Source: Emiliania huxleyi CCMP1516
Taxonomy: Eukaryota
Assembly (NCBI RefSeq): GCF_000372725.1
Contig: NW_005201298.1
Location: 249,393 to 313,392, forward strand
Length of the DNA: 64,000 nt
Reading direction: 5' to 3'
Below are positions 12,761 through 64,000 of the stretch, piece by piece. The notes under the pieces are model-generated. The model was given only the letters and a program-made list of their open reading frames with translations, did no database searches and was not told the origin of the DNA. Position 1 is the stretch's first letter; the number at the start of each line of letters is the position of its first letter. Position numbers and translations under genes: made by a program.

Positions 12761-13350
12761 ACAGGTCGCCGCCCGCCGGGCGCGAGGTGCGCTAGACTGG
12801 GAGACCACCTCACTAAGGAGCCTGGACCCAGTTCTCATGATTGTACATGACTAGCGATGTGTTATAGTTCCTCTTGTGTAAGTAAGACGCGATCCCGCCC
12901 AAGGGGCGTCTACTTGGGTTTGTCCGCGACACATCGCGGGAGATACATGCCCAAGTCTCGCGGCACGGGGAAACCCGCAAATCCATCCCCGCCGGGGCGT
13001 AAATCGGTCCAGGGCAACCCTCGTCTCACAACGAATCTCGCCGGCCTCACCGGCCCCCACCGGCTTTCGTCGCCCATGCTCGGTCTCGACTTGAGTGCCG
13101 CTCGACTGGCCGATGAAGAGCGACCCGTACGACGCGCACTTGTCGTCCTCCCTCCTCGCCACATGACGGCCGCCCCCCGACACCGACAGTCGCGCTCCGC
13201 ACGCCTTCGAGATCAGCTGCGGCCGAGCGACGATGGGCTCCGATCGCTGGGCGCGGTCACTCTCCAGCCCATCACCCGCCTGCCGATCACCTGTCCGCCT
13301 CGCCGCGCGCGGGCCGCTCGCCTGCTCGCCACCGCCGCCACGCGTCCCCG

Positions 13351-13665
13351 CGCCGCCACGCTTCCCTGTGCACCTGACGGCGCTGCGCAGACGGCGCGCT
13401 CTGGCAGACAGAGCAGCGGCCGCCCAGGCGGTCGCTGCTCCGCCCCGTCCGAATCCGTCCGCCCGCGCGTGCTGCTGCCGCCGCCGCCGCCGCCACCGCC
13501 GCCGCGTTTCCCCGCGCCGCCACGCTTCCCCGCACCTGACCGCGCGAGCTGCGCAGGCAGACGGCGCGCTCTGGCAGACAGAGCAGCGGCCGCCCAGGCG
13601 GTCGCTGCTCCGCCCCGTCCGAGTCCGGCCGTCCGCGCGTGCTGCTGCCGCCGCCGCCGCCGCTC
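13351..13665 (+). repeat. Two direct copies of a ~150-165 bp GC-rich unit
   Basis: GCAGACGGCGCGCTCTGGCAGACAGAGCAGCGGCCGCCCAGGCGGTCGCTGCTCCGCCCCGTCCGA occurs at about 13387 and 13557. Confidence 0.85.
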
Positions 13666-15067: not shown

Positions 15068-18000
15068 ATGTATATGCGACTTCACGCGAGCATCCTCGCC
15101 GCGTTCCACCTCCTCCGGCGCTGGCTCACGCGGGTCGTTGGCCCGCGCGCTGCGGCACTACTCCGCCACGTCCACGCTGCCACCGAGCCCCGCGCCGCTT
15201 CGATCGCTGGCCGGCTTGGCCGCATGTTTGTGCGGGTCATGGGACCGAGCGCCGCAGTGGCCGCTCATCACGTGCCCGAGGCGCCCGAGCGGGAGCACAG
15301 CGCGGAGCGGCTCGCTGCGCAGTCGCACCTTCGCCGGTCGATCATTCCGAGCACAGTCACGCGCCGGATCTCTGACGGGCGCTGCGACCCTCGCCGGAGC
15401 AGCGGCCTGCGTCGCCTCCGCCACTCTGAGCCGCCACTCGCCGCCGCCGCAGGCCAATCACGATTGGCGTCTGCTGCATGGCCAAGAAGGCCAAGTCGGG
15501 GCCGATGCTCGAGACGCTGGACCGACTGCAGGCCTTCCGCGGAGAGAGATCGCCGAGAGATCGCCGAGAGGCAGCCGAGCCGAGAGACGGCCGAGAGACA
15601 GCCGAGAGATAGCCGAGAGATAGCCGATAGATCGCCGGGAGATCGCCGAGAGATCGCCGAGAGATCGCCGAGAGATCGCCGAGAGATCGCCGAGAGATCG
15701 CCGAGAGATCGCCGAGAGGCAGCCGAGAGGCAGCCGAGCCGAGAGACGGCCGAGAGACAGCCGAGAGATAGCCGATAGATCGCCGGGAGATCGCCGAGAG
15801 ATCGCCGAGAGATAGCCGAGAGGTGGCCGAGAGACAGATGCAAGAGGACCGGCTGCAGGCCTTCCGCGCCGACGGGCACGCCGAGTTCGCGGTCGTGTCC
15901 TTCGACGAGCGCATGCTGCTCGAGGAGCCGGTCGAGTCGTGGCCCGTGTGCGAGGCGGGTTAACTAGTTATTAATTAGTTATCCGTTATTGAGTAGTGAC
16001 TGATTAGAATTCGTCGTGGCCCGTGTGCGAGGCGCTGATCGCCTTCCTTCTCAGCGGGTGAGTCAGTGATTAATTCAGTGATTAATTAGTGAATTAACTC
16101 CTCCTGGATTAGGCGCTGATCGCCTTCTTCTCCGCGGGGGAGTCAGTGATTAATTAGTGAATTAACTCCTCCTGGATTAGGCGCTGATCGCCTTCTTCTC
16201 GGCGGGCTTCCCGCTGCAAAAGGCGCAGGCGTACGCCACGCTCCGCAAGCCGTTCGTGTTCAACGACCTGCAGATGCAAGAGGCGCTCTTCGACCGGCGC
16301 CTGAATTAATCACTGCCGTCAATGATTAACGAGTCAATATCGCCGTTCATGAATTACTAAGGTGCTCTTCGACCGGCGCGCCATCTACGCAAAGCTCGAG
16401 GGGGTAGGGGTGCCCGTTCCGAAGCACGTCGTGCTCGAGCCGGGCAGCGCTGTGGTCGACGAGCAGGAGGACTACATCGAGGTGGACATGTCCGAGACAT
16501 GTCCGAGACATGTCCGAGACATGTCCATAGGAGGACTACATCGAGGTGGACGGCGCCAGGCTGCAGAAGCCAATCGTCGAGAAGCCAATCTCAGGCGAGG
16601 AGGAAGTGATTAGCTAATCAGCGAATTAACTGGTAGCAGACGCCAATCGTCGAGAAGCCAAGCTCAGGCGAGGACCACGACATCCGCATCTACTACCCGC
16701 GCTCCGCCGGCGGCGGCTCGAAGCGGCTCTTCCGCAAGGTTGGCGACAAGGCGTCCCAGTTCTACCCCGACGAGCATGAGTCGCGCGCCACGTCGGGCGA
16801 GGCGTACATCTACGAGGAGCTGCTTCAGACCGAGGGGACGGACGTAAAGGTGCACGCACACCAGGAGTACGCCCAGCACCGACCACCCGCAGTCACACCT
16901 CCATTCACAGCCTTGTTATTCACACATGGACAGGTGTACGCGGTCGGCCCGGAGTACGCGCACGCCGAGGCGCGCTAGCCGGCCGTCCTCGTTCGCACTC
17001 CTCCGTGTGAACGCATGCTCGTGTGGCGTCTGGTCAGGCGCGCAAGTCGCCGGTCGTGGACGGCAAGGTGATTCGCAACGCGCGCGGCAAGGAGCTGCGC
17101 TACCCGCTCATCCTCAACAACGACGAGAAGGAGATCGCGCGAAAGGTGGTCCTCGCCTTTGGCCAGACGCTGTGCGGGTTCGACCTGCTCCGATCGGAGG
17201 GCCGCTCGTACGTCTGCGACGTCAACGGCTGGTCCTTCGTCAAGGACTCGCACAAGTTCTGGGCCGACTCGGCCAACCTCCTCCGCCAGTACTGCCTGCA
17301 CGCCATCTGCGCGGGAGGTAGATGTCTGGACGAGAGACGCGGCCAGCCTCTGGCCAGCCTGCTCAGTCAGGATCTCTCGCCGGACCAATGTCGAGTGCTT
17401 GCCCGGCACGCCACGCCACGCCACCCCTGCAGCGCACACCGCGTGGAGACGCGCTCCTGCCGGCAGAAGGGCGTCTCTTCACAGCCGTTGCTGTGAACAG
17501 GCCCGCACCACGTGGAGAGGCACCCGCAAGGCGCGCCTCAGGTGCCGCCGCCCGACGCCGCCATTCAGCCGTCTGCCACTCCACAAGCAGACACCGCCCA
17601 CCGTCCCCTCCCCTGCACGCCTCGCAAGGTGCCGCCGCCCAACCGGACGATAAGAGACTCGGTGCTGCAAGACGTGGTGCCGCCCCGCGCCTCGCTGCAA
17701 GCGCCGACCGGCGCCGAGGAGTCGGAGCTGCTCTGCGTGATCGGGCTGACGAGGCACGGCGACCGGACGCCGAAGCAGAAGCTAAAGATGAAGACCACGG
17801 AGCCGCGCCTGCTCGCGCTGCTCGGCAAGAACAAGGACGCGCGCGCGGAGCTGAAGATCAAGAAGATCCGCGCCATGGAGGAGCTCACCCAGATCGTCTC
17901 GCGGCTTGTGGAGGAGAAGCTGCGCGCGGCGGACCCGTCCTCGGACAGGCACGAGGAGGACCTCGACAAGCTCCTCACGCTGACTGTGTGGTAGTAACTG

Positions 18001-21000
18001 CCGGTGCCTCCTCCTCCAGGTACGAGGAGGACCTCGACAAGCTCCTCACGGTGCAGCAGGTGCTGCAGTCGCACCCGTTCTCCGGCATCAACCGCAAGGT
18101 CCAGATCAAGCCCTCGAAGTGGGCTGCTGTACCGGAGGCGGGCTCAGCGGACGGCGGCGCCGCGCCCCCAGCCTCGCGCGAGGTCGCAGTAGAGGCGCTC
18201 TTCATCCTCAAGTGGGGAGGCGAGCTGTGAGCAGCGTCTCTTCACACCTGCAGCTGTGAACAGGCGCTCTTCATCCTCAAGTGGGGAGGCGAGCTGACGG
18301 CGCTCGGGGAGGCGCAGGCCGAGTACCTTGGCGCCAAGTTCCGCAACTCGCTCTACCCGGGGGACGAGGTTGGCGGCGGGGTGCTGCGGCTGCACTCCAC
18401 CTACAGGCACGACCTCAATCAATTAAGGGTCAGTTACGGTTGATGAGGGGTTAATTCAGAGTCACTCCACCTGCAGGCACGACCTCAAGATCTACTCCTC
18501 GGATGAGGGGCGCGTGCAGACGACGGCCGCCGCCTTCACCAAGGGCTTCCTCGACCTCGAGGGCGCCCTCCCCCCCATCCTCGCCTCACTCGTCTCCAAG
18601 GACAAGTCGGCGACGGCCATGCTCGACGACACGAACGAGCAGGGCCGCCTCGGCATGGACAGATCAAAGGCGGTCATCTCGCAGCTGCTCAACTGCCCGC
18701 AGACTACCGCAGGGGCCATCGCCGCGCAAGAGTCGTCCCGCCCCCCCTCGCCGAGCAGCAAGCAGCCGCGCGGACTCGAGCGCGGACTCGAGCATGGCCA
18801 GATCGTGGCGCAGGCATACCCCCCCCCACACATACCTCCCCCGCATCTCCCCCACATCTCCCCCACATCTCCCCCACATCTCCCCCACATCTCCCCCACA
18901 TCTCCCGCGCCAGGCGCCCTCGACGGCGGCGGAGGGCGGCCTCGCCTCCGACTCCCTCCTCTCCGCCTGGCTGAGCGAGAATGCAAAGGCGCCGCGCCAG
19001 GCGCTCGAGCGGCTGCACCAGCTAGTCGAGGAGCTCGAGCGGGAGCTACGCGGGGAGATATGGGGAGATGTGGGGAGATGTGGGGAGATGTGAATAGGAG
19101 CTCGTGCGGGAGCTACGCGCGAGGAGCAGCGCGGGCGGCGGCGCGTCGAGCATCGGCATCCTCGGGCTGCTAGTTCATAGTGAATCACTCATCGAGCAAT
19201 GCATTAATAGGCGCGTCGAGCATCGGCATCCCTCGAGTCCCTTCTCGCGACGTGGCTGTCTCGTCGGGCAAACTTTCCTCCAAGGTTGCGGCACTTGTTC
19301 ACAGCTAGAGGTGTGAAGAGACGATGTTCACAGGCCCTCTCTCCTCCAAGGTTGCGGCACCGCTGATGGTGAGGCTGTCTGCTCGCTGATAGTGAAGAGT
19401 GACCTCTCTCCTCCAAGGTTGCGGCACCGGCGAGGCATTCCGCAGCCAACGGCAAGACGCCGCACCTCCAGCTCGGCCTAAGGAAGGGTGAATTAGGGGC
19501 GAGTTGGGTGTGAGTTAGGCGAGACGCCGCACCTCCAGCTCGGCCGGTGGGCGCAGCTGCACAAGGACCTGTACAGCTCGCGCAAGGAAGTGTTTGACAC
19601 CTCAAAGGTGCCAGACATCTACGACAATGCGCTGTACGACATGGTCCACAACGAGCACCTCGGGCTGCAGGCCCTAGCCGCGCCGGCTCCGAGAAGGGTG
19701 CGAGAGGGCTCCGAGGCGGTCCCGTCACTTCGGTGCGTTGCTGCAGGCTTTGCCGCGCTTGTTCCGCGCCTCGCGCACGCTCGCGTCGTACGTGGTGCCG
19801 CAGGAGTACGGCATCGAGCCGGAGGACAAGGTGACGGTCGGCCTGCAGATCGCGTGGCAGATGCTCGCCAAGCTGCTGCAGGACATGCTTGAGAACGGAG
19901 GAGCGGTTGCCTAGTAATGAGCTGCTGAGGAGGATCGCCCACCTGCCGTAGGACATGCTTGCCGGCATGGACGCAGAACGACACATGGAGGAGACGCGTG
20001 CCTCCGACCGCCCCCCCCCCCTGACATGTCCGAGACATGTCCGAGACATGTCCATAGGAGCGCATGCCTCCGACGCCCCCCTCCGAGGAGCCTTCCGAGA
20101 GCCTTCCGCTCGAGCCTTCTTCGAGAGCCTTCCCCGTAGGAGCGCGCGCACGAGCTGGACCATACCTCCCCCACATCTCCCCCACATCTCCCCCACATCT
20201 CCCCCACATCTCCTCCCCCACATCTCCCCCACATCTCCCCCACATCTCCCCCACACCTCCCCCACACCTCCCCCACATCTCCCCCACATCTCCCCCACAT
20301 CTCCCCCCTGCCTCCCCCGCATCTCCCCGTAGGAGCGCGTGCACGAGCTCGACCCGTCCGCCTTCACCGACGTCAAGTCGAGCTCGCGGCATGTCCGCAC
20401 GCGCCTCTACTTCACGTCCGAGGCGCACATCCTCTCCCTCTTCAGCGACATGTCCGAGACATGTCCGAGACATGTCCATAGGTCCGAGTCGCACCTCCTC
20501 TCCCTCTTCAGCGACATGTCCGAGACATGTCCGAGACATGTCCATAGGTCCGAGTCGCACATCCTCTCCCTCTTCAGCGACATGTCCGAGACATGTCCGA
20601 GACATGTCCATAGGTCCGAGTCGCACATCCTCTCCCTCTTCAACGTGCTGCGCTACGGCCACGAGGTGCTCGCCGCCACCCAGGGGGAGAGGGCGAGCCG
20701 CGGCGTGCAGTGCATCTTCAGCGACGAGGCGCAGATTCCCCGAGATTCCCCGAGATTCCCCGAGATTACCCGAGATTACGGCGTGCAGTGCATCGCAAGC
20801 GACGAGGCGCTCGTCAAGCTCGAGAAGCTCGGCTTCCCCGAGATTCCCCGAGATTACCCGAGATTACCCGAGATTGCGAGAGTACCCGAGAGTACCCGAG
20901 ATCAGGCGCGCGTCAAGTTTGAGAAGCTCGACGTCGGCTACCTCTCGCACATCGTCTTCCGCGTGCTCCACAAGAAGAACGCAGACCCGCAGGTGCCCTC

Positions 21001-21492
21001 CTCGTACGCGGTGCAGGTGCACAGCCGGTGAAGTAGATCTCGTCAGTCGAGCACTGAGCGAGCGCCTGTGTTGACTGACGTGCCCATGACGCGTGGTCGA
21101 CGTCTCGTCAGGTGCTCGTCTCGCAGGGCGTCAACCAGAACATGTCCGCGCCGTCGCGAGGCGGGCCGTGCCAGGCCGAGTGGCACGAGAGGCCGGAGCT
21201 GCTGCCGAGCGACATGTTCATCTCCTCGCGCGACGACCTCACCCTCGAGGACGTCGACTGCTTCTTCTCGTACTTCCTGCGCAGCACGCCGCTCGGACAG
21301 ACCAAGGCGGCGCCGCAGCGGCAGAGCAGCACTCCGTCGGCTAGCAGCACGACACTTAGCTCGGCCCTCGCGTCGGAGAGCTCTATGCAGGCGCGCGCCT
21401 CGCGCGCGCGCCGCGCTTCGGGGCCGCTCGTGCCGGAAGGGGAGGCGACGCCGTGCGTGGTGTCGCGGCGCTGCGCCGGGTCGGAGAGCTGA
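15068..21492 (+). CDS. VIP1: Inositol hexakisphosphate / diphosphoinositol-pentakisphosphate kinase (VIP1/PPIP5K), many exons; start uncertain
   Basis: [135 protein letters not shown]. Confidence 0.95.
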
Positions 21493-22011: not shown

Positions 22012-24499
22012 GCGTGTTGTATGTTGTTGTGTGTGCGACCACCTTGGCCGACTTTGCCCACGCCGCGTCGGCCGCGACCTTCGCCTCAGCTGCCGCCTGC
22101 GCGTCCTCTTGCGACGGAGCAATCCCATCCGCCACGGTGGCGGCGTCCTGCGATCTCTGGGCCGACTGCCGGGCTGCATTCAGCCTCGCCGCCTCCGCCG
22201 CCGCCGCCGCCTCCACTGCCGCCCTCGCCGCCTCGGCAGCCACCGCAGCGGTGCGGGCAGCCTCGGCAGCGGCGCGGGTAGCCTCGGCAGCGGCTGCCTC
22301 CGCCGCCGCCTCCTCGGCCGCCGCCGCTGCCGCCGCCTGCCGCTCTACCTCCTCCGACGCCGCCTTCTCGGCCTCGATCCTCGCCGCCTCGGCCGCCGCC
22401 GCCTCCTCCGCAGCCACCCTCGCCGCCTCCGCCGCCTCCGCCTTGACGTCGGCATTGACGGCCGCCTTGGCCCGCTCCTGCCGGCCTCGCGCGACCTCGC
22501 TCTCCTTCTTCCCGCCGCCCTCCTTCGCCGCCGCCGCATGCGCATCCATCTGCATCTCCTCCTCGCCGGGCCAAAGCCGCGGAACCACCGCGAGCATGTC
22601 GACGTCGGGTGCGGCAACGGAGACGGAAGCCACGGACGTCTTCCTCTGAAGGCGCCCTTTCGCCTGGAGCCGAAAGCAACTACCACCACTCCTGTGCAGA
22701 CGCCTCTGAAGACGCGCGCGAACGTGGTCGTGGAGCACCTTGGCCGCTTGGTGAGCTGTGAGAACGGCGTCGAGACTCGCCGGCACCCCTTTTTTCGGCA
22801 GCCCGTGCTCGTCCTTGTCCTCACCGCTTCCGGTGTGCGGCAAGAAGAGCTCAAACTCCGCAAGCATCCTAATGAGGAGCTGCCCCGCCTGGATCTCGGC
22901 GAGCTCCTGGCCCCAGCACCGTCGGGGGCCCGCGCCGAACGGCAGGAAAGCCGCGTGCTTCTCCTCGCGCGTCCGAAGGTGATCGTAGCGCTCGGGCTGG
23001 AACTCTAGTGGGTTGTCGAAGACGCGCGGGTTCTGGCCGATTGCAGTCTTGAAGTACGTGAGGTAGCACTTGGCGGGGATGCGGATCCGCGTTGGAGCCC
23101 GACCCCTTGGCCCCGGAACCTCCATCTGAATGCACTTGTGGATCTTGCGCGCCGAAAACGGGATCGTCGGGTGCAGGCGCAGTGCCTCGTAGAGCACATG
23201 CATCACATCCTTGCAGCCCCGAATGTCCTTCGTCGAGAGTCGTCCTTCAGGCGCCGCCTCCAGCGTGCGTCGCGCCTCCTTCGCGGCGATGCTCTGGCGC
23301 TCCGGGTCGTTCGCGAGCATCAGCATGCACTGCGCCACCGTGTGGGCCGTGCTCTCGAATGAGGCCGCGAGCATGAGCACGAGCTCGTCGTTGATCTCCC
23401 ACTCGCGCATCCCAGCGCTCTGGCGCATGAAGCCGGGAAGTGGCGCGTCGTCGTCGTCCTTGCACTTGAGCGCCATGTCACGGAGGAAGCCGAAGCCCGT
23501 CGTGAAGCTCCGGATGCGGGCGGGCTCGAGCCACATCCAAATTGGCTGATTCGTGCGGCGGGACACCTCGCCCGCGAAACTGTCGACCGCGGCGATTATG
23601 TCGCGTTTCTCCTCCTCTGTCTCGGGGCGCTTGTCGTATAGGTACAAGAACATCGTGTCGAGAGCCCAGCACTGGAGCTCGAAGCCCAGACAGCCGGCGC
23701 GGGCAACTCGTTCTCCCTCATCGTTCCTCCCGTCGTCCCCCGAGCCCCTCCGCCCCCTCCACCTCTGTAGCATCTCCCTCGCGACCGGGTCCACGCGTAG
23801 AGCATGTTGCAAAAGGCCTGTTCGTTCTTGATCTTGCTGATGGCGTGCCTGTTGCTCGAGTGGTGCGCACCCACCGGACACCCCATTAGGGACCCGGGCG
23901 TGATGGTCTTCGTTGGGCGGAGCGAGTCAAAGTCTCCACTGATCACGTCGTGAGGGACGTAATCCGTGTAGACAAAGGGCCGCTTGCCGAGCGGCATGTG
24001 CAGACGGAAGCAAGGTCCGAACTTCTCGTGCAGCTGCGTCAGTGTGTGGTGGCGATCGCCCCATCCGTTCGCGCAGAGATCGGGATAGTTGCCCCACAAG
24101 AAAGAAGGCTTTGGGCCAGGGATGTGTGCGAAGCGGCGGAACTCGCGCAAGCGCTCCACGACGAGTGACCCGATTGTTAGCACGGCGGCTGTCGTGATGC
24201 GCGTTCCAGAATCCCGTGATCAGCCGCGCAGCGTGAAGCGCCACGAACAGCGGGCCAACGACGAGAGCGGCGCCGTACCACAGCGTCCGCAGCAGGAAGT
24301 AGCTGTTTCGACAGGCGTACCGCACGTCCCCGCGAAGGAAGGTTGACGTCAAAATGGAACGCGGGTAGGCTAGCCACAGCGCTCGTGCGAGGGAGCAGGG
24401 CTTGATGCGGCTGCCGTCACAGCCTCCGTGAGCACCGTCGCTCGTTGGGAACGGCTGCCTCGCCAGGCTCGAACTCGGACGTCCAGCCGACAGCAGCAT
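21688..24499 (-). CDS. Cytochrome P450 with long Ala/Glu-rich C-terminal extension; apparent frameshifts near 23794 and 24200
   Basis: IPGPKP hinge, I-helix AASFESTAH, EALRLHP (ExxR), PERY, heme motif FLPFGAGPRRCWG. The last exon ends ADEEEYF* at 21688. The start is tentative. Confidence 0.85.
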
Positions 24500-34019: not shown

Positions 34020-37000
34020 ATGTCCGGCCTACGCGTGCGCACGCCCAAGAAGGCGCGCGCGCGCCCTCCAGTGCCGCTGCCACGCTGCCGACCGCGCGCG
34101 GGCCTCGGTCGCTCACCGCCGCCCGCCCTCTCCCGCAGGCAAAGGACAACTACGACGAGGCGATCGAGGAGTACGAGCGGGAGCAGAACCCCAAGGCGAT
34201 CAAGAATCGCGTGCGCAAGGCGCAAAAGGCGGCGGAGCAGGCGCTCGTGACGGGCGACAAGATGGCGCGCTGCGGCGCGGCGCTCAAGCTGCTCGGCTTG
34301 CGCGACGACGCGTACTGGTTCCAGGAGCCGGTGCCGGTGGGCGAGGTGCCCGACTACCTGGACATCGTCGAGGAGCCGATGGACTTCCGCACCATCGCCG
34401 GCCGCCTCGCCGGCGGCGAGTACGGCGACGACGCGCTCGCGTTTGCGTCGGACGTGCGGAAGGTCTTTACGAACGCCGTCAAGTACAACTGGTCGCCCGA
34501 CCACCCGTGCAACATCGCTGCGCGGGCGGGGCTGCGCGAGTTCGAGCAGCTCTTCGCGCGCGCGAACGGCAACGGCTCCGCCCCCAAGCCGCCCCCGCCC
34601 GCCGCCCAGCCGCACAAGAAGCGCCACCGCGATGGCGGAGGAGGAGCCGTGGCCGGCAGCAGCAGCGGCGCGTCGGCGGCGGCGGTCGTCGGCGGCGGCG
34701 GCGGGGCGTCGGCGGCGGGCGGGGGCGGAGGCGGAGGGGGCGTCAAGCGTGCGCGCATGCGCGGCTCTGCCTCCGAGGCTGGCTCGGCGGACAGAGACCG
34801 CGAGCCGACCGGGCGCCGTCCACGAACCTTCTCGGAACCTTCCGGTAGGCTGGGTCGGCGGACAGAGACCGCGAGCTCATCGCGGGTCTGGGCGAGTACC
34901 TCGTGTCGTGCGGCGGCGCGGAGGGGCTGGTGGACGGCTGGTACACCCGGACGGAGGTCCGCAAGGGAGGGGGCACGGCCGGCACGTTCGACACGTACTT
35001 CTTCACGCCCGCCGGGAAGCGCTTCCGATCTCGCGCCGAGATCGCGCGGTTCTTCCAGCTCGAGGCGGCGCCGGCGAAGTCTGCCAAGTCGCAGGACGCC
35101 GAGGAGAGGAAGGCGCTGAAGAGCGCCGAGCGCGAGGCGAAGAAGCAGCAGAAGGAGGAAGCTGCGGCGGCGCGCCAGGCGCAGCTCGACGCGGAGAGGG
35201 CGCTGCGAGAGCGGTGCGCAGTCCGCCGGCGAGGCGCTGTTGGCTGGTCAGTGTGGGTAGCGGCGCATTGTGAATGAACAGGTACCCCGTCCCCGACGAG
35301 CGGCTGGCGGAGGAGGAGCCGCACGAGCCTCCTCTCGGCCCTCGCCCGACACCGCTGCCAGCAGGAACCGGCGCCGTGCCCGCCTCGGCTGTCGGCGACT
35401 TGCTGCAGGAGACGCGTCCCAGTCCGCTCCCCAGACACCGGGCAGGCCCTTCCCCAGACACCGGACAGGCCCTTCCCCAGACACCGGGCAGTCCCTTCCC
35501 CAGACACCGGACAGGCCCTTCCCCAGACACCGGACAGGCCCTTCCCCAGACACCGGGCAGGCCCTTCCCCAGACACCGGACAGGCCCTTCCCCAGACACC
35601 GGACAGGCCCTTCCCCAGACACCGGACAGGCCCTTGCCCAGACACCGGACAGCCCTCTCGGCCTGCTGCAGGTTTGCGACTTCCTGCGCGCACTCGGCCC
35701 CCAGCTGCAGCTGCCCTCGTACTCGCCTTCGGAGCTCGCGGCGGCACTGGTCGCGTCGGAGGGCGAGGCTGATGAATAGCTGAGTAACAGCTGAGTAACA
35801 GCCAGCGAATTAATGACAGGTCGAGTCGGAGGGCGAGCCGAACCCGAAGCTCGCTGACCTGACGCAGGCTTGCACTCTTGTGTGGTAGGACAGTGTATTG
35901 CAGCATCTCATAGCCGGCTTGGCGCAGGCTTGCACTCTGCCTTGCAGCAGCGATCATAGCTGGCCGGCCTGCCGCAGGCGCTGCTGCAGCTCGTGCTGAC
36001 CGACAAGTCGCTCGGCGAGTGGTGGGGCGTGCGGGAGGCGCCGAACGGGCCAAAGGCGGCCTTTGCGAGGGCGTCGTCCGACTCGAAGAAGGTCAAGTGG
36101 TGGGAGGCGGACGCGAAGCCGCTGCTCAAGGTCGACCTCGAGGCGATCCTCGCGTCGAGCGAGCCGACGTCGCGCACTCGCCGCTGGGTGGCGCAGCTCG
36201 AGACGGTTGCTCCGATGCGCACAAACACCGGCGTCCCGATCCGGCAAGCGCTGGTTGCGGCGAGGGCCATCTCCTCCGACGGCGAGGTGCGGAGGTACCT
36301 CGACCGCGCAATCTCGCACTGGAAGGGCAACGCCGCGGGCACGACAAAGTTCGCCGCTCTTTGGCTCGCGGCCCAGGTCCGGCGGAGCCGGCCGCAGATC
36401 TTCACGGCGGAGGGGATGGCGGCGGTCGAGGCGGAGGAGGACGGCGGCGTGGACACGTCCTTGGACACGTCCGAGGACGTGCCCCCGCCCGAGGAGGAGG
36501 AGGACGGCGCCTCGGAGCTCGCGCCGTCGGAGGTTGCTAATTAATATTAATTAGCTATTAATTAGCCTCGGAGCTCGCGCCGTCGGAGGTTGCTCCGTCG
36601 GAGTTAATTAATAGCTCATTTTTAGCTCTGTGATCGTTAGTAGCTCATTGCTTGATTACAGGCTGCTCCTTCGGAGCTAATTAATAGCTCATTACTAGCT
36701 CATTGATCGCTCATTACTAGCTCACTGCTTGATTACAGGCTGCTCCGTCGGAGCTAATTGATAGCTCATTACTAGCTCATTGATCGCTCGTTAGTAGCTC
36801 ATTGCTTGATTACAGGCTGCCCCCTCGGAGCTAGTTGATAGCTCATTACTAGCTCATTGATCGCTCATTAGTAGCTCATTGCTTGATTACAGGCTGCCCC
36901 CTCGGAGCTAGTTGATAGCTCATTACTAGCTCATTAATCGCTCATTATAGTTCATTGCTTGATTACAGGCTGCCCCCTCGGAGCTGCCGGACGAGCTCGA

Positions 37001-40000
37001 GGAGGAGGACAAGGGCGAGGAGGGCGAGGCGGGCGGCGAGGAGGGCGACGAGGGCGACGAGGGCGGCGAGGAGATCCAGGCGACCGACGAGATCGACGGG
37101 CGGCTCTGGACGGGCGCTGCCGCGGAGGGGTGGGTGGTGCGCGCCAAGGGCAAGACGGGCCAGAAGTGGGGCAACTGGATCTACGTCGGCCCCTCCGGCA
37201 CAAAGTACCACTCCAAGGTTGCCGCCTTCGAGGCGCGAGACGCGGAGGCGCACCGCGCGGCCGACACGGACTCCGTCGCCCTCTCGCGCCTCAAGAGCGA
37301 GGCGGGGCCGCCAGAGGCGCTCGTCGGCGCGCGCGTGTCCGTGTTGTGGTCGGAGGAGGGCGGGGCGGGGGCGTGGTACCCGGGGCAGCTGTGGGCCTTC
37401 GACGCGGCGACGCGCGAGTACCACATCCTCTACGACGACAACTCGGAGGAGCGGCTCGACCTCACAAAGGTCAAGCACCGGCTCGTCTACCAGCTGCAGC
37501 CGCCGCACCTGCTGCGCTCGCGCAACCCGCCCGCGCCGGAGGTGGGGCCGACGTCACCGCCTACTCGTGGCCGCCTACTAGTGATTACTAATTATGAATA
37601 TGAATTACAGGTGAGCGACGTCACCGCCTACTCGTGGCCGCCGCTGCTCGCCGCGGTCGCGTTGCGCCTCCTCCGCCACTGGGACCCGGCGTGCGTCATC
37701 GACGACACGCCCCCCGACCCACACGCCCCACCCGGCCAACCTCACGGCGACAGCGCGGGCGGCGCTGCGCCGTCCGCCTCTTCGCCCGCCGAGCTTGCGC
37801 CGCGCCTGCAGCCAGCGCAGCCCTCGGCTGGCGGCGCCTCCGCACGCAAGAGCGACCCCATGGAGGCAGCTCGGCTCGCGCAGTGCCGCGACACGTCCGG
37901 GACACGTCCGGGACATGTCCGGGACATGTCCGAACAGGTGGAGGCCGCGGCCCCGGCCTCGACCTCGCCGGCCTGCGGCGGCGGCGCGGCTGTCGCCAGC
38001 CCCGGCGGCGGCGGCGGCTTGGCCGTGTCCGTGCAGGCCGCAGGTCGGGCGAGCGCAGAGGGAGGAGGCTGCCCCGACCCCGCCCCCTCGCCGCGCGCGC
38101 GCGTCAAGCGGCAAGGCTCGAGAGTAGCCGAGAGGAGCCGAGAGGAGCCGAGAGTGGCCGAGGTGAGCCGAGGTGAGCCGAGGTGAGGCCGAGGTGAGGC
38201 CGAGAGGAGCCGAGAGGAGCCGAGAGTGGCCGAGAGTGGCCGAGAGTGACCGCCCTCCAAAGCCAACAACGCGTTCCTGCGGCTCTTCCGCCCCTCTAGG
38301 CTCGCTCGGCGGCCTGCCGCCCCGCTCCCACCTCTACTGCATCTCCTCTCCACCTCGGCTCCACCTCCGCCCCTCCAGGTTCGCTCGACGGCCTGCTGCC
38401 AACCTCGCCCCCCTCGAAGCCGCTCTCGTCCGGCGGTGACGCCTCCGCCCTCGCGCTGCCCTCGGCCTGCGGCGGAGCGAGCCAGCTGGAGCCCGCCATC
38501 CGCGCGCTGCTGGGCCAGTCGCCGTCGCTCGCCCACGAGGTCTACAGCCGGCTGCCGCCGCTGCAGAAGCTGGGCTTGCTGCGCGTGCTCGTCGACGGCG
38601 CGTGCGACTCGCCGCACACCGCCAAGGCGGTGGACGAGGCGATGGCGAGGCGGAGGGGGGTGCTGGAGCGTGAGGAGGAGGCGGAGAAGGAGAAGAGGCG
38701 CGAGACGCGCACGCTGCGCGACGAGGCGCGGCACGCGCTGCGCGAGCAGCTAGCAGAGCAGCGCGAGGCGGCGGGCGAGGAGGGGGAGCAGCTCTTGCCG
38801 GCCGAGGTGAGTGAGGTTGCGGTTAGCCTCGAGGTGCAGAAGCGGCAGGAGGCGCTAGCGTGCGGCGGGCAGGTGGAGGCCCTCTCGCGCGAGGCGCTTC
38901 CTTCACGACTCCCTCCCCATCTCTCATTCCTCCATGGCAGGTGGAGGTGCTGTCGCGCGAGGCGCTGCAGCAGGCGGAGTCCGACCTCTCGCCATCGAGC
39001 TCGAGTTGTTAATTAATCAGTTAGGTAATCATAATTAATTAATAGGCGGAGTCCGACCTCGCTGTCGAGCTCGAGCTGCTAATTAATCAGTTAGGTAATC
39101 ATTTAATTAATTAATAGGCGGAGTCCGACCTCGCTGTCGAGCTCGAGTTGTTAATTAATTAGTTAGGTAATCATAATTAATTAATAGGCGGAGTCCGACC
39201 TCGCTGTCGAGCTCGAGTTGTTAATTAATTAGTTAGGTAATCATTTAATTAATTATTAGGCGGAGTCCGACCTCGCTGTCGAGCTCGAGCTGCTAATTAA
39301 TCAGTTAGGTAATCATTTAATTAATTAATAGGCGGAGTCCGACCTCGCTGTCGAGCTCGAGTTGTTAATTAATTAGTTAGGTAATCATTATTAATTATTA
39401 GGCGGAGTCCGACCTCGCTGTCGAGCTCGAGCTGCAGGCCGCGAACGGGATCGACTCCGACGGACGCGACTTCTCGGCCGCCGATCGGGAGTGGCACCGT
39501 CAAAGAGTCACGGCTCAATGCGCGACTCTCGCTCTCCATGAGTTAGGCCGCCGACTTGGAGGGCATCGTTGCGCGGCGCGACCTGATCAAGCACCGGCGG
39601 GACACCTTTGGCCCAGCGCGCGACGCGGCGCAGTAGAGGGCTTGCGAGGGCCGCGCAGTCTCGCGCAATCTCGCCCACTCTCGCCTCGCTTGTGGCGTGT
39701 AGGCGCAGGAGGGTCTGCGGGCCGCAGCCTCGTCCGGGGACGCCGCGGTGATGGAGGCGCGAGATGTGGGGAGATATGGGGAGATATGGGGAGATATGAG
39801 GACGCCGCGGTGATGGAGGCGCGAGATGTGGGGAGATATGGGGAGATATGGGGAGATATGAGGACGCCGCGGTGATGGAGGCGCGAGATGTGGGGAGGTA
39901 GCGGGAGATATGGGGAGATATGGGGAGATATGAGGACACCGCGGTGATGGAGGCGCGAGATAGGGGGAGATAGGGGGAGAGATAGGGGGAGATCGCGGTG

Positions 40001-56327: not shown

Positions 56328-59300
56328 CTACCGGAGGACGAACTGCGACGTGTCGACGAGGCACGCCGCCTGGACGGCCGCCGGAGTCAGCGGCGCATCG
56401 ACGTGCAGCGGAGGCTGCTTGGACGCGTCTCCCGCGTCGGCGCGCGCCGCGAGGATCGCGGCGCGTGCGGCGAGGAAGGCGGCGGCGGCGAGCGCCATCG
56501 GCGGCTCCGCAGACGCCTTGGAGTGCAGCGTCGCGCCCGGGGCCGGGTTGGGCGCGCGCGGCAGGAAGGAGACGTTGAGCTCAAGGGGGATGTCGTGCAC
56601 AGCCGGCACCTGTGCTCCCCCCGCGCCGAGCGTGGGGAATCGGAGGTGTCTCGGAGGTGTCTCGGAGGTGTCTCGGAGGTGTCTCGGAGGTGTCTCGGAG
56701 GTGTCTCGGAGGTGTCTGGGAGGTGTCTGGGAGGTGTCTCGGAGGTGTCTTGGAGGTGTCTCGGAGGTGTCTCGGAGGTGTCTCGGAGGTGTCTCGGAGG
56801 TGTCTCGGAGGTGTCTCGGAGGTGCACCTTGTACTCCCACGTGCCGAGCGTCGTCGGCGCGCCGCTCGGCGAGTGGGAGACGACCTCGGGGAAGAGAGAG
56901 CAACGCCGGTTAATGACAGGGAATGATGGAGAGGAATCGCTCGGCGGGCGGGAGACGGCCTCGGAGAAGAAGAGGCCGAGCGCCATGACGAAGCCCCCCT
57001 CGACTTGCCCGAGGTCGATCTCCGGGTTGAGGGGCGTCCCCTGGTCCATGAGCAGGTCGGCGCGCAGGATGCAGGTCTCGCCAGACAGCGCGTCGATCTC
57101 GACCTCGCAGATTAATCAGCACTACTCAGCACTACTCGGCACTGGGTCACCGACGGCGGGTCGCGCTCTCCGCCTCGCAGCACGCCACGCCCGAGGTTGC
57201 GTAGTCGAACTTGGGCACCCCCTCGGGCGCGGCCCCGCCGAACCAGCCGCTCGCCGCGAGGGACACGCCTACTCACACCCTCCCCCTTCCCCGCGGGCGC
57301 CTTTCCCTCCACCCCAGCCGCTCCCCCCACGAGGGAGTCGCCCGCGTCGGTCGCCGCTTTGACTGTGGCCTCCCACGCGCCCTCCCCCGCCGCGCCAGCC
57401 GCCGGCCGGAAGGGGAGCAGGCGAGCGTTGAGCGTCTCCGCCGCGTCCAGCACCGCCTTGGCGACGCACTCCGGGGTGTGAAGGGAGGGGCTGGTCAGGC
57501 GCTAGTCAAGCGTCCAGCAGCGCGCCTTGACGACGCACTCCGAGGTGGCAGAGCCGCCCGTGTCGGCCGAGCCGGGCGTGGCGAGCGACGAGGTGTCCGA
57601 CACAGACACGCCGCCGAGCGGGCAGCCGAGGGCGAAGGCGGCCGCCTGCGCCGCCTTAGTGTGGATGCCCTGCCCTAGCTCGCACCCTCCGTGGGCCAGC
57701 CGGACGGACCCGTCCGCCAGCACGCCGAGCGAGCAGCCCTCCTTGTACGCGCCTCCGTTGTCCTCGATGCCGTACTTGACGGGGACCATCCTCAGCCCGC
57801 GCTTGCGCCACCGGTTGGAGCGGTTGAACGCCTCCACCTGCTCACGCCAACCAATGCGAATCAATGCTGGCCAATGCGAATCCATGCCGAGGAATGCGAA
57901 TCCATTGTGAGTAATGCGAGTCCATGGCGAGTAATGCGAGTCAATGCGATTGCAATAGGTTGGGGCGCGGTTTTCGAGCCCCCGCCTGCTCGCGCCGCGC
58001 CGCAACCTCCCACCGCGCCTTCGCGGACTGCCACATCGCCGGCAGGTTCCAGTTGAAGCCGTTCTCGCCCACGGTGACGCCGCAGAGGGCCGCGTCCCCC
58101 GTGGCGTACAGGTTGGCCTCGCGCACCGCGTCCGCCGGCAAGCCGACCGCCTCGGCCGCAGCCTCCATCGCCAACTCGTGCAGCGGGATGGTCTGCACGA
58201 CGCCGGGAGCTCGGCACGCGGTGCTGCCTACGTGTGGGACGAGGCGAGATTGCGCGAGACTGCCCGAGACTGCACCACCCCCCCGGGGAAGCGCGCGGCG
58301 CTGCCTACGACGCCGGAGTTGTAGAACGAGCCGTGCACCGCGAAGTCGTCGGCGCGGTACGCGTTGTCCGCCCAGCAGACTCCCATCGTCAGGTCGCCTG
58401 TCGAGCACCAATTAATTAATTACCAATTTTAATTAATTAATTAATTATAATCAATACTCCCATCGTCAGGTCGCCTATCGAGCACCAATTGACTGACTGT
58501 TCGTCCTTCGCCACGAATCAGAGCAGGCGCCCGTCGTCAGGTCGCCTGTCGAGCACCAATAATAATAAATAATAATAATATAATATAATATAACTCCCGT
58601 CGTCAGGTCACCTGCGCCGCCGTCGACGACGCCAGAGTCGAACGCCGCGGTGAGCTCGATTGACGAGACGACGCCGCCTGTCGGGACATGTCGCGGACAT
58701 GTCCCGGACGTGTCGCGGCGCTGCGGGGAGCTCGAGAGGGGATGGTACGCCACCCTGGTCCACCGCGAGCCGGAAGGAGCCCTCCATCGGCGGCCGGCCG
58801 CCCGTCGACGCCATGTCGTCCGAACGGTCGTTGTGCAGCCGCACGGGGCGGCCGTGCTTGGCGGCGGCGACGGCCGCGGCGATGGCCGTCGGGAGGTGCG
58901 CGTTGAGCTTGCCGCCGTACGCGCCGCCGATACGGCGCACGCGCACGTCCACCGTGGCGAGGGGGAGGCCGAGCGCGCCTAATCTCGGGTAATCTCCGGT
59001 AACCTCGGGCAATCTCGCCGTCCACCGTGGCGAGGGGGAGGCCGAGCGCACCCGCCACCGCCGTCTGCGTGCGGGTTGGGTTCTGGTTGGCGCAGGTGAT
59101 GGAGAGGCCGCCTCCCTCGACCTACAATAATGAACGGGCTCCTCTTAACGAACTGATCGGTATCGGTGATGGAGAGGCAGCCTCCGTCGACCGGCAGGGC
59201 GAGCGCGGTGTTGGTCTCAAGGTAGAAGTGGCGCTGGCCTGGTATGGACCAGTGAACCCATTAGTAATCAGCGTCTTGCGGGTCACCATAGGAGGACACA

Positions 59301-62300
59301 GTGGCGCTGGCCCCCGATGCGGAGCTTGCCCTCCACGGCGGCCTTGCCCTCCGCCGCCGCGCGAGACCACCACTCGCCCGCCTAAGTTCCAATTCAACCA
59401 GTCAGCCCCCAGTGTGTGACCGGCTGGACTCACCTCCTTGTCTGAGTGAACGCTCGCTCGCCTGCCGCCCGCGCACAATGCTCGAGTGGTGATCGTCCTC
59501 CTTCACCTCCTGCGCGCCGCCGTCGCCTCCGCCTCCGCCTCCGCCTCCGCCTCCGCCTCCGCCTCCGCCCTCGCCTCCGCCTCCGCCTCCGCCCTCGCCT
59601 CCGCCTCCGCCTCCGCCCTCGCCTCCGCCTCCGCCTCCGCCGCCTCCGCCCGCCGCCTTCGCCTTGCGCGTCTCCTCCTGCAGCCGCTCGAGCCGGATCC
59701 CGTTCCGCCGCGCGAACCCAGAGGAGCGGAGCTGCTCGAAGGCCGCCGCCACACGCGCGGCGTCGGGCGGACTCCGGCGCGAGGTGGGAGGGGGCGGGGG
59801 GGGGGCTTGCTTGAGGAGCCCCGCCGAGTGGCTGAGCCTGAGCACGGCCAGCTGCGCGCCTAGTCGGCCGGCCACAGCTCGCTCAACGCGCGAACGGCCG
59901 AAGCGTTGACGAGGCGTGAGCGGATGGCTGCGCGCCACGCCGCGCGTGCGAGAGGGAGTCGGCGAGGACGACGGCGACCGGCGCGCCGACGCATGGGAGC
60001 GGCGACCCGACCGGGTGGAGGTAGAAGGGGTAGCAGTTCGAGTCGGCGGCGGCGGTGGCGTTGGCGGCGGGGTTCGGGAAGTCCGCCGCGCTGACGACGT
60101 CGACGACGCCGGGGGAGGCGAGGGTGGCGCTCCAGTCTGCCCCGCAGAAGGAAGCGCCGGCAGAGCCGTCCGGCGCGAGGACGAAGGCGCCTAGTATGGA
60201 GTGGTGAGCTGAGCGCTCCTCGGTCGGCGGCAGAGCCGTCCGGCGCGAGGACGAAGGCGCCTAGTATGGAGTGGTGAGCTGAGCGCTCCTCGGTCGGCGG
60301 CAGAGCCGTCCGGCGCGAGGACGAAAGCGCCGCAGAGCTCGCCCGCGACGGCTGGCTCGTCGGAGGAGTAGAGCGCCTCGCCCGACGCCTGAGTAGCGCA
60401 CTCCTTCCTGCACTCGTGATGAATACTGCATGAGTAGACCGCCCTCCCCCCGACGCCTGCAGCAGCGAAGTGAGCTTGGGCAGCGGCAGCGAGACGGGCG
60501 CCTACAGGAAAGGTCCAGGAAAGGTCCAAGAAAGGTCTAGGAAAGTGAGCTTTGGGCAGCGGCAGGGAGACGGGCGCCAGCGACGCGTCGCTCACGCCGA
60601 TCGACTGGGTGCCGCACGAGACGGGCCTGCTCTCAGGAAGTAGCCTCGTCATTGACTAGCCATTCCTTGTGAAAGGGCCGCACGAGAGACGGGCCGGTCG
60701 GCGGCGGCGGCGAGCGAGCCGGCGACGGCGGACGCGAGGCGGGGGGGGAGGGGCGAGCCCTGCGCGGAGAGGAGCAGCTTGTACGCAAACGAGGCGACGA
60801 GGGAGAGGCGGTACTCGTGCGGCGCGAGGTGGCCGATGTCCGAGGCGGAGCCCGCGTCCGACTCGACGGCCTTGGCCGCCTGCTGAGGGACGCGTCCATG
60901 AGAGTGACTTCCTTCACAGGGAGGTACACGGACCGGCCTTGGCCGCCTGCTGCACCAGCTCGGCGACGAAGCCGCGCATCGCGGCCGCGTCGGATGGGGC
61001 GGCACCTACGGACGACCTTGCTAATCAATTAATTATTAATTAATTGATTAATTGATTAATTGATTATTCATCAGGGCGGCGCCTACGGGTGATCTCGCGG
61101 CGAGACTGCGACGAGACTGTCCGAGGTTGCACCGCGACCGATGCTCGGCGCCGACGAGACGGGACGCGGCGGAGGGTGGGACCGCCCACGTGCCGCTCGA
61201 GACGAGGCCGCCAAAGGCTCCGCCCACCGCCGCGACGGCGCCGCCCTTGCCTGCGGGGCATGTCCACGACAGTCCGGGACATGGCCCAGCCGCCGGCCGG
61301 CGACATGCCCCCCCGCCAGTGCGCAGCGCGAGGCAGCAATTGAGCAGCGCGTGGCTGTTGGCGTGGCGCGACGAGACCTTGTCGGCGAAGCAGGCGGCGA
61401 GCGAGCCCGCGCGGCCGCCCGCCGACGCGAGAGGGAGGCGCAGCGCCACGATGAGCAGCGAGGCTGCGGAGCGAGGGCCGCAGGAGAGGTACCTGAGGGA
61501 GGTGTCGCGGAGGTGTCTCGGAGGTGTCTCGGAGGTGTCTCGAGGACCGCAGGAGAGGTGCCTGACTCAGCAGCGCGAATGTGGTGAGTGGAGTGGGGGC
61601 GTGGGCCGCGGTGCGAGGCCCAGACAGCGGTACTCGGACACGCTCACTGTGCGGAGGCCGCCGCCGCCGCCGCCACGGCGAAGGCCGGTGCGGTCGATGA
61701 CCGTGAGAGAGGCACCGACGCCAACGAGGAGCACCGCCACGTCGGAGGGGAGGGCCGGGTGGGCTGCGGCGAGGGCAAGGTTGCCAGCCCACGACCCGAC
61801 GGCGCGCACCTGAAGGAGGTGTCTCGGAAGTGCCTCGGAAGTGCCTCGGAAATGTCTCGGAAGTGCCTCGGAAGTGCCTCGGAAATGTCTCGGAAGTGCC
61901 TCGGAAGTGCCTCGGAAGTGCCTCGGAGTTGTCTCGGAAAGTGCCTCGGAAGTGCCTCGGAAGTGCCTCGGAAATGTCTCGGAAGTGCCTCGGAGGTGTC
62001 TCGGAAGTGCCTCGGAAGTGTCTCGGAAGTGTCTCGGAGGTGTCTCGGAAGTGCCTCGGAAGTTGTCTCGGAAGTGCCTCGGAAGTGCCTCGGAGGTGTC
62101 TCGGAAATGTCTCGGAAGTGTCTCGGAAGTGTCTCGGAAGTGTCTCGGAAGTGTCTCGGAGGCTGGCCGCCCACGAGCCCTCTGCGCGCACCTGAGTCGT
62201 CGCCACGCGGCCGAGATGGCGGGCGAGGGCTGCGGCGGCGGGTGCGGCGGCGCCTCCGCGCTGCTCGGAGGCCCAGGGCGGCCCCCCTCCCCTCCCGTCC

Positions 62301-63271
62301 GAGAGAGGGGCCTCGGCCGCCGCGGCGAGAGCGCTGCGGAGAGCCTCGAGCGTCTGCGCGGCGCCGGCAGAGAGCTCCCCGCTGGCAGGGTGGAACGCGG
62401 GCGCCGCTGCCAGCTCCGGCACGCCGCTCACGTCGACCAGCGCGGCGTTTGCTTGCGGCGGCAGCCCGCCCGCCGTCGGGCCGCGGGGAGTGTAGTACTT
62501 TCCGACCCCCATGCCCGTGTTTCCACAGTGCAGCAGCGCGGCCGGCTCGCGCCGCAGCAGCTCGACCTAATTAGCCAACAAGCTTCCTCTGAAGTGACTG
62601 GTTGAGGTAGGCGGAGAGCTCGCGCCGCAGCAGCTCGACCAGACCCTCGAGCGAGGCTGGCCGCGAGTAGCTCAGCCCGCTGCCTGAGGGAAGTGTCTCG
62701 GAAGTGTCTCGGAGGTGTCTCGGAGGCTGGCCGCGAGTAGCTCAGCCCCGCTGCCCTCGTCTTCATACCGCAGAGAGACGGGCGCCCGCGCGCGCGCCGC
62801 GACCGCCGCCGTCGGCGAGACCAGCCGCAGCGCCCTGTCGCACTCGCGCCTCGCCGCCGCCCTCCGGCCCGCCTCGCCGTTTGAGAGAGAGGACGCCTGC
62901 AGCGCCGCGTCGCACCTTCGGACCGGACGGCGTGGCTGTGGCCCTTCCGAGACACCTCCGAGACACCTCCGAGAAGGTTCGCACCGGCGGCCGCACGGCT
63001 TGCCCGTGGCGACGTCGTGGCACGGCGCGCACGTCTCGAGGTCGGTGATGCAGGAAGAGTCGTCGTGGGCAAAGGCGCGCTTGAATGCCTGCAGTACGAG
63101 GGAGTGACTGCCGTCACGGTGTGTGACGTGCTGTCAAGGCGTTCTCGCGGTCCTCGAGGGTGAGGGTGAGGGTGAGGGTTAAGTTAGGGTGACGGTTAGG
63201 TTAGGGTGAGGGTGAGGGGTGAGGGGTGAGGGGTGAGGGGTGAGGGGTGAGGGTGAGGGTGAGGGTGAGGG

Positions 63272-63304
<33 letters not shown>

Positions 63305-64000
63305 AGAGGGGGAGGGGGCGGGGCCTGGAGGATGGGCCGGTAGCCGGTGCAGCGGCAGAGGTTTCCATCCAGGCTCTCCTCGATCTCCTTGGCAGTGAGG
63401 TGCGCCGCGCCGCGCGCCGCCGCCCCGCCCAGCAGCGCCGACATGGCAGTCACCCAGCCGGGCGTGCAGAAGCCGCACTGGCTGCCTTGCCCCTCGGCGA
63501 TCGCCTTCATCACCTGCGAGTACCCGGCGCCTTGCGAGCCGAGCCCCTCGACAGTCGTGAGCGCGAGCCCGTCGCAGCCGCAGAGGAGGCGGAGGCACGC
63601 GTTGATCGCCCGCGGGTGGCCGTCCGACCCGACGGCGATCACCTACTTCTCCCACCACACTCAGGCGAGGGGTGGCCGGCGGCAGTTCCACCCCCAAAGG
63701 GCGGCCGACGGCACCGTGCACGCGCCGCAGCCGCCCTCGGCGCACCCAATCTTGGTGCCGGTGAGGCCCTCGGAGCGGAGCCACTCGGCGAGGGTGAGGG
63801 AGGGAGGCGGGTCGACGAGTCGCCGCTCCCGCCCGTTCAGGCTGAAGACCAGCTCCCGGCTCGGCGCGTCGGCCAGTCGAGCGAGCGGGTGGGACGGCGC
63901 GATGGCGCGTCGGGACCAGCGCTGCCGGGCGAGCAGCGCAGCTAGGACCGCGGCAGCGAAGACCGCGACGCTTCTCGCGTGCGGGATGTCTTGGCAAACT
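56328..64000 (-). CDS. Aldehyde oxidase / xanthine dehydrogenase family molybdo-flavoenzyme, many exons, start beyond the window
   Basis: GTKIGCAEGGCGACTV, SQCGFCTPG, GNLCRCTGYRPIL, QASGEALY, GQRHFYLET, RRIGGAYGGK, GCELGQGIHTK, DLGQVEGGFVM, SKASAEPP. GGAYGGK and CRAPG resemble aldehyde-oxidase rather than XDH motifs. Confidence 0.93.

Follow-up and report, generated by a model that had tools for sequence, protein, structure and literature searches.

The question addressed here is how an intron comes to be built of several intron-like units placed end to end, and whether such an arrangement serves its gene or reflects the way in which the intron was made. It is raised by a PPIP5K/VIP1 gene encoded in a stretch of 64,000 nucleotides (the window) of Emiliania huxleyi CCMP1516 (contig NW_005201298.1, positions 249,393 to 313,392, forward strand), intron 21 of which is comprised of three 66-nt units. 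A first-pass annotation had treated this array as a singular feature, a site of recursive splicing or of alternative acceptors. The current analysis has revealed that its build is common among the introns of the gene and of the window. Intron 21 is a real, variable and fully spliced stacked intron and a clear example of this style. It likely represents a little-described mode of intron formation and multiplication, compared with which a regulatory switch is improbable.

Organisation of the intron 21 array

The features of the array and its flanks are given below in the numbering of the window, a slash within letters marking a splice junction or unit boundary.

20333..20415, + strand: upstream exon (ERVHELD...RLYFT), ends CAC; record 17 of the RNA contig from run X15 covers 20331-20415 and joins 20614; gene model
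20416..20481, + strand: unit 1, with exon copy 20416-20444, filler 20447-20477, CATAG and a GT donor at 20416; from sequence, and found in DNA run X1 with no other letters
20482..20547, + strand: unit 2, like unit 1 in build, with C at unit position 14 (C14) and TAG/GT at 20481/20482; C14 contigs in DNA runs X1 and X2
20548..20613, + strand: unit 3, with TAG/GT at 20547/20548 and the terminal acceptor CATAG ending at 20613; unit type present in RNA run X10
20614..20728, + strand: true exon, histidine-phosphatase-like domain; RNA joint, gene model and protein alignment
20423..20620, + strand: alternative placement of intron 21 with a GAG/GC donor and a GAG acceptor, giving an identical mRNA; 7 joint letters fit both sides

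A tandem repeat has been identified at 20416-20642 with a period of 66, 3.4 copies and 98% matches. It agrees with the unit starts (20416, 20482 and 20548) and the exon start (20614) proposed earlier, and the overall observation is confirmed. Each unit has a 29-nt copy of the exon start followed by about three 11-bp repeats (GACATGTCCGA) and CATAG. The exon-start copy in the array matches the exon at 28 of 29 nt. The sole mismatch of unit 1 is a G at unit position 8 (G8), and the copy in unit 3 is identical to the exon throughout its 29 nt, this unit following the exon at positions 8 and 14 and the other units beyond 29. The GC..AG placement at 20423-20620 is possible only in alleles with G8, which the strain of run X10 lacks.

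About 37 of the 66 nt of a unit are repeat filler also found at other loci. The upstream 37 nt are alike in all three acceptors and the AG is supplied by the filler. An acceptor immediately followed by a donor, claimed previously for every junction, is present at both inner junctions (CATAG/GTCCGAG) and not at the first, which reads CAC/GTCCGAG. The bases before the inner AG, GACATGTCCAT, are without a polypyrimidine run; the used acceptor is also without one, so that this carries little weight in E. huxleyi. No inverted pair is located at the unit ends among the 4 inverted pairs found. RNA folding gives a z score of -1.5 for the single unit and -5.1 for the whole array. The latter was rejected as evidence and is ascribed to repeated palindromes that are lost on shuffling. 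The array is far above chance as a repeat, yet ordinary within the E. huxleyi genome.

Transcripts and proteins at intron 21

The sequencing runs considered are marine and consist of assembled contigs, which cannot reveal splicing intermediates or lariats. A 3439-nt RNA contig of run X15 joins 20415 to 20614, skipping 198 nt with GT..AG ends, and this is the sole joint listed among the four runs aligned on 20331-20732. Intron 21 is absent from mature RNA. In the RNA run X10 the contigs of the exons, of depth 247 and 270, are broken precisely at the copy, and those of the units reach depths of 71 and 79. Arithmetic on these bins, which presumes two small unlisted contigs, assigns a depth of about 22 from exon into unit, 34 from unit into unit and 360 into the true exon. 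These depths fit RNA that is for the most part spliced, alongside some that is unspliced and has two or three units. The X10 units carry neither G8 nor C14, so that any intermediate in this run would look like pre-mRNA.

Partial splicing had also been proposed to insert 22-residue repeats within the conserved motif of the phosphatase-like domain. The unit is indeed a stop-free multiple of three; read-through in the coding phase is open and adds 22 residues per 66-nt unit. The location of the insert requires correction, as a retained unit keeps RLYFTSE(S/A)H whole and the extra residues follow LSLF, just downstream. A PDB search with the read-through peptide returned chance matches only.

A selected alternative-acceptor device would yield VIP1 isoforms that are longer by 22, 44 or 66 residues and so would tune the phosphatase domain. 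The stop-free unit, the X10 unit contigs and a database protein, P0019, that begins at the Met of the last unit speak for such a device, and we nonetheless regard it as very improbable. Among the 15 of 23 members listed for the P0001 protein cluster, the motif is covered by nine records; eight of these are fully spliced, P0019 is the ninth and none has a full-length unit insert. Three other listed cluster records (P0009, P0011 and P0014) read into introns 3, 12 and 19, so that, with P0019, four database protein records end or start inside retained introns. They are in line with the pervasive intron retention of E. huxleyi, in which reads were found throughout in 89% of 535 inspected introns (PMC4028052; this and the other papers cited by number are drawn on for the portions available to us). 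The passage from upstream exon into unit in X10 is small against that into the true exon. The insert claim thus retains the in-frame, stop-free unit and otherwise has little support, the identical filler being present in units of 64 and 67 nt that are not multiples of three. Only introns 21 and 22 of the eight tabulated stacked arrays are in frame and stop-free, the remaining six being out of frame or with stops. Since frame-keeping is not general, 22-residue isoforms are unlikely to be selected.

Unit number in DNA

Unit counts have been read from contig breakpoints and depth. In the DNA run X1 a contig extends to 20459 with G8 (38.8) beside a C14 bubble (32.1), and the shared junction has a depth of 77.9 against a flank of 38.8. 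Another contig is unbroken from 20597 to 20732 (44.7), which gives two units, G8 and then C14. In the DNA run X2, C14 units have a depth of 157, junctions 99 and the flank 38, giving about 3-4 units; X2 lacks cover over 20625-20732, a gap given no weight because records are filtered. Run X10 has at least two units with neither mark. The unit number is 2 in X1, 3 in the window and about 3-4 in X2; beyond number, the unit sets also differ.

An assembly artefact, which would here be one of a single 66-nt intron, had been raised as a possible refutation. It would be suited by unit 3, which X1 lacks and which did not show up in X2. Unit marks and unit-to-unit junctions are present in both DNA runs and unit-to-unit words in X10, so that at least two units are already established and the third unit alone is in doubt. 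We consider an artefact of the whole array the least probable of the alternatives weighed here. The array is real, and its copy number likely varies. It has the two properties of a splice-site-spanning variable number tandem repeat (VNTR), namely a unit that includes a splice boundary and a number that varies.

The filler followed by CATAG/G is matched by contigs of many other loci, which then diverge; their summed depth runs to ten thousands against about 38, a sum of loose ends that gives no filler copy number. The filler end belongs to a genome-wide family. The 2013 E. huxleyi genome paper reportedly describes abundant 10-11-bp intronic repeats. The filler-plus-acceptor pattern had no match in viral_contigs or genome_contigs, as expected for a eukaryote.

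Exon copies in the introns of the gene

The gene has been modelled as follows.

15478..21492, + strand: PPIP5K/VIP1, internal ATG to stop, 23 introns, 1069 aa; gene model, with the true start further upstream

The earlier assignment to VIP1 with a phosphatase-like domain is borne out by the window exons, which match PPIP5K2_N, RimK and His_Phos_2. P0008, a database protein of the cluster, contains PF18086 and PF00328 (PPIP5K2_N and His_Phos_2; E 1.8e-34 and 4.2e-44). The motif aligns with YFTKESHIYTLLN in PDB entries 9gro and 9grn, and a Diacronema homolog is among the 7 protein matches. Fourteen introns of the model derive from RNA joints, intron 21 from the X15 joint on its region, five further ones from the letters between aligned contig parts or from contig pieces, and introns 1, 16 and 18 have been placed by hand. 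The length of the 23-intron model agrees with the X15 RNA contig at 11 of 11 checkpoints, and 985 aa align with the database protein P0001 with 0 gaps and 4 substitutions. The 5' end of the gene (15209-15477) differs between records P0008 and P0009, and the window frame has stops upstream of ITIGVCC; this is probably one more intron or an alternative start.

A copy of the following exon's start (score at least 8) is found at the start of 13 of the 23 introns, as against 1 of 506 cross pairs. The end of the previous exon is copied at the intron end in four of 23 (2 of 506 cross pairs), and 14 introns have either kind of copy. The copies at intron starts vary from 10 to 33 nt. Introns 1, 5, 12, 16 and 19 have copies on both sides, with AG/G inside the duplicated segment. 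The donors are GC in 14 introns, GT in 5 and GA in 4; the published proportions for E. huxleyi are GC 56%, GT 40% and GA 4%, in a genome of 65% GC (PMC4028052), and the window has about 65% GC. In 21 of 23 introns the donor dinucleotide equals the first two bases of the next exon, where permutation gives a mean of 9.5 and none of 100000 permutations reaches 21. All four GA-AG introns (4, 14, 19 and 20) precede exons beginning with GA. An AG context precedes 19 of the 23 donors.

Five of the 23 introns (2, 16, 20, 21 and 22) are stacked. Those other than intron 21 are listed here with a single-unit intron of related build.

15955..16180, + strand: stacked intron 2, units of 77, 81 and 68 nt, GC donors, AT-rich filler with stops; RNA joint
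16467..16530, + strand: single-unit intron 4, 64 nt, GA donor, 21-nt exon copy, GACATGTCCGA filler, CATAG end; RNA contig data and gene model
19285..19417, + strand: stacked intron 16, units of 66 and 67 nt, AAG/GT junction, unlike fillers; placed by hand, confirmed by length and by P0001
19991..20332, + strand: stacked intron 20, units of 67, 82 and 193 nt, GA donors, three filler families; RNA contig data and gene model
20729..20905, + strand: stacked intron 22, units of 78 nt (upstream-exon copy) and 99 nt (downstream-exon copy); RNA joint

Unit 1 of intron 20 (67 nt) has the filler and CATAG end of the intron 21 units. A low-complexity 3' part is shared by introns 4, 20 and 21, and their likeness is limited to that part. 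At 19276-19417 the upstream-exon copies of intron 16 read CTC where the present exon reads CTT, and the copies may preserve an older state of the exon. The fillers CTCCCCCACAT and GGGGAGATGT (18836-18906, 19052-19092 and 20166-20328) are near reverse complements, and each of them occurs in the sense orientation within introns of one gene.

Repeats and stacked introns across the window

Short non-periodic direct repeats spaced 35-400 nt apart in the window fall at 60-81 nt in 41 of 57 cases, and 27 of these 41 are outside VIP1. For the 34 pairs within 60-81 nt the spacing is 71 +/- 4 and shows no increase with copy length (slope 0.09 +/- 0.10). A seamless G..AG placement is possible in 33 of the 34 pairs (null mean 20, max 30 of 2000 draws). 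AG/G sites with an upstream copy number 58, a count that includes repeated and mirrored matches; five Markov resamples gave 0-1. Stacked introns have been predicted from sequence at four further places, the first of them in another gene.

36589..36968, + strand: predicted stacked intron, five units of 73-77 nt, none a multiple of three, stops in all phases
38974..39401, + strand: predicted stacked intron, six units of 70-72 nt, TAG/GC joins, stops in all phases
58393..58540, + strand: predicted stacked intron, units of 77 and 71 nt, CAG/GT join
60191..60330, - strand: predicted stacked intron, two 70-nt units, TAG/GC join

Two other arrays have also been identified in the window. A 62-bp array at 39738-39993 has an apparent upstream-exon copy and GGGGAGATAT filler without a clear AG/G junction on the + strand, and a 170-bp tandem duplication at 13313-13663 (2.1 copies) is without obvious filler. 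A reading frame on the minus strand at about 22600-23500 encodes FLPFGAGPRRC, which we take to be the heme motif of a cytochrome P450.

VIP1 loci of other organisms

A motif scan of metagenomes identified 41 loci, none from the organism of the window; 31 are of VIP1 type and 10 unrelated ones were dropped. The site of intron 21 is uninterrupted in all 31. One locus on a 26-kb contig (L018) is without introns over the aligned region. Three others (L021, L030/L035 and L012) have introns of like build with other fillers, including CCCTAA/TTAGGG runs in L021 and L030/L035 that are presumably telomere-like. A copy of at least 10 matches is present in 10 of 14 introns placed by hand in L021, L030 and L012, and L021 and L030 hold stacked units. 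Placement by hand was adopted for L021 and L030, where the automated repeat census missed most copies, the repeat fillers dominating it. One of the 14 (L030 182-291) has no open translation. A GAGGGT run is found in the window at 63156-63323. Together with the CCCTAA/TTAGGG runs it hints that filler could come from telomerase-type addition at breaks.

Removal of the units

It was suggested that the intron can be removed stepwise. With recursive splicing as the normal route, the first donor would join the nearest CATAG and regenerate CAC/GTCCGAG, the step then being repeated, or the inner TAG/GT donors would remove units from inside. As read from the letters, each unit is a complete intron of the usual size in this genome (about 70 nt) with signals as at the used acceptor, all three acceptors being identical over the 37 nt noted above. 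The inner donors have the AG context that is usual in this gene, while the first donor follows CAC, and inner AG/G is kept in stacks of unlike fillers (introns 16 and 20). Recursive lariats are known in short human introns, although conventional lariats are favoured there (PMC10156609). On the other side, the full 20415-20614 joint alone is listed, repeated donor copies are silent in intron 7 of human F7 (PMC1557585), and introns of 190-340 nt are present in the VIP1 gene. Further, the inner sites are not conserved in the 31 orthologous loci and the unit number varies between runs. We judge stepwise removal as the normal route to stand slightly below an even chance. It concerns the route of removal only, and is compatible with an origin of the units by duplication and filler.

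Origin of the units

The most satisfactory explanation is that an intron unit arises from duplication of an exon edge together with repeat filler, and is then amplified by slippage or unequal exchange; we consider this probable. A staggered break or a similar event would duplicate 10-40 nt of exon, the gap being filled by a 10-11-bp repeat. The unit would survive when the copy gives a donor starting with G and the filler or the copy gives an AG. A donor supplied in this manner would explain the GC and GA donors. Units would be held near 70 nt, probably a spliceable size. The direct repeat between copy and exon would drive gain and loss of whole units and refresh the copy. Unit 3, which follows the exon at positions 8 and 14 and the other units after 29, has the composition of a hybrid formed in this manner. 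Since any order of unit removal would give one mRNA, the stack is likely neutral, and stepwise splicing may be a by-product.

The anatomy of the unit, the full-length joint, the unlike unit sets of three runs and the window, and the like build in more than half of the gene's introns are direct observations; the mechanism of birth, the source of the filler and the neutrality of the stack we infer.

The main rival on origin is renewal of old introns in place. The copies would then be the ends of older introns overwritten by spliced message (abortive cDNA-templated intron loss), or would stem from duplication across an existing splice site with loss of the older intron. Copies do begin at splice junctions, a junction lying within 3 nt of a copy edge in 15 of 34 pairs (null mean 4.3, max 13), but this is also predicted by selection for seamless splicing. 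Duplication of an intron-exon border in potato made a new intron with an exon-derived donor (PMC4974935). The emptiness of site 21 in the metagenome loci stands against renewal, as do the copies on both sides of five introns, which need two events against one duplication, and the three filler families of intron 20, which require an outside source of filler. Renewal is on balance unlikely, though far less so than the isoform device.

Several observations weigh against an origin by duplication and filler. Intron positions 20, 22 and 23 are common to L021 and L030/L035, organisms whose introns carry exon copies of their own, so that renewal of old introns fits these positions as well as fresh gain. 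The 31 VIP1-type loci include no close relative, and a number of them may be transcripts. No empty (intron-less) allele was seen in the E. huxleyi data, runs X1, X2 and X10 all having the intron, so that the birth event itself is not caught. The slope of repeat spacing on copy length given above is that of pairs already restricted to 60-81 nt, and becomes -0.25 +/- 0.30 when pairs up to 120 nt are taken; some rows of the repeat census stem from one array. The arrays outside VIP1 are predictions, RNA support being confined to VIP1. The third unit of the window could belong to an allele of the strain or be an error of assembly. Intron 22, like intron 21, keeps the frame without stops, and P0019 accounts for one of the nine motif-covering records.

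Significance

Taken alone, the array is a variable repeat in an intron, and the wider pattern matters more. Few births of new introns have been caught, and their origin is an open question. In the gene studied here more than half of the introns still bear the scar of a duplication, the unit size being fixed, and VIP1 loci from other organisms bear scars like it. The pattern offers a testable cause for the reported GC and GA donors of E. huxleyi, the donor being whatever the next exon begins with. Units marked by G8 and C14 make intron 21 a natural reporter by which stepwise and one-step removal of a short intron can be told apart. Gene models will be misled by units that keep the frame, as in intron 21, and by junctions that slide.

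It is tentatively suggested that several haptophyte-like algae make and renew introns by a routine so far undescribed, in which an exon copy of 10-40 nt is brought to a unit of fixed length (about 70 nt in E. huxleyi) by filler of short repeats; we place this somewhat short of an even chance. That such a routine would also explain the GC and GA donors, stepwise-spliced stacks with zero-length exons, and precise self-duplication or loss of introns is put forward with the same reserve.

Comparison with known systems

The intron style appears to be little described, and its novelty is provisional. No account of haptophyte introns that are stacked or carry exon copies was found in the literature available to the search, which did not extend to the 2013 genome paper of E. 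huxleyi or to its supplements. Nothing on the VIP1 type of intron build is contained in the accessible portions of PMC12480563, PMC11347835, PMC10290126 and PMC12130899.

Recursive splice sites, or ratchet points (PMC10156609), similarly have YAG/GT inside an intron and a zero-length exon. Intron 21 differs in having no polypyrimidine tract (Y5+N0-4YAGGT in that source) and no conservation, in its length of 198 nt and in being known from contigs.

Insertions of filler flanked by direct repeats are known, and the VIP1 units are also filler between direct repeats. Those repeats are described as short, whereas in VIP1 they are 10-40 nt long, the fillers form genome-wide families and units recur at one junction.

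The nearest variable array is the 37-bp VNTR of human F7 intron 7 (PMC1557585), a repeat of variable number that copies a splice site into the intron. F7 repeats donors only, whereas the unit of intron 21 is a whole intron with acceptor and donor.

The Introners (bioRxiv 10.1101/2022.06.06.494994) resemble the present introns in that the filler gives the acceptor, the duplicated target gives the donor and one 3' end occurs at many loci. In VIP1 the duplications are longer and of variable length, 10-33 nt at intron starts as against 4-8 bp, terminal inverted repeats are lacking, and the body is a low-complexity repeat, a class that was filtered out in that study. The terms 'huxleyi' and 'haptophyt' are absent from its main text as available.

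Intron gain by tandem duplication (PMC3443670; potato, PMC4974935) shares with intron 21 intron ends that repeat the flanking exon, a donor from the copied exon and an unchanged coding sequence; the potato intron likewise joins an exonic piece to an intron 3' end. In contrast, the copies in intron 21 are separated by non-exonic filler of 10-11-bp repeats, the unit stays near 70 nt irrespective of copy length, and the splice sites do not both derive from a duplicated AG/GT, the upstream exon ending in CAC and the AG coming from the filler. The VIP1 donors are mostly GC or GA, units are stacked without an exon between them, and the build is found in more than half of the introns of one gene rather than as a rare case.

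The GC-AG and GA-AG introns reported for E. huxleyi (PMC4028052) are ascribed there to the GC content of the genome, and exon copies and stacked units are not mentioned in the portion available. The VIP1 introns agree with them in the mix of donors, the 65% GC and the frequent retention.

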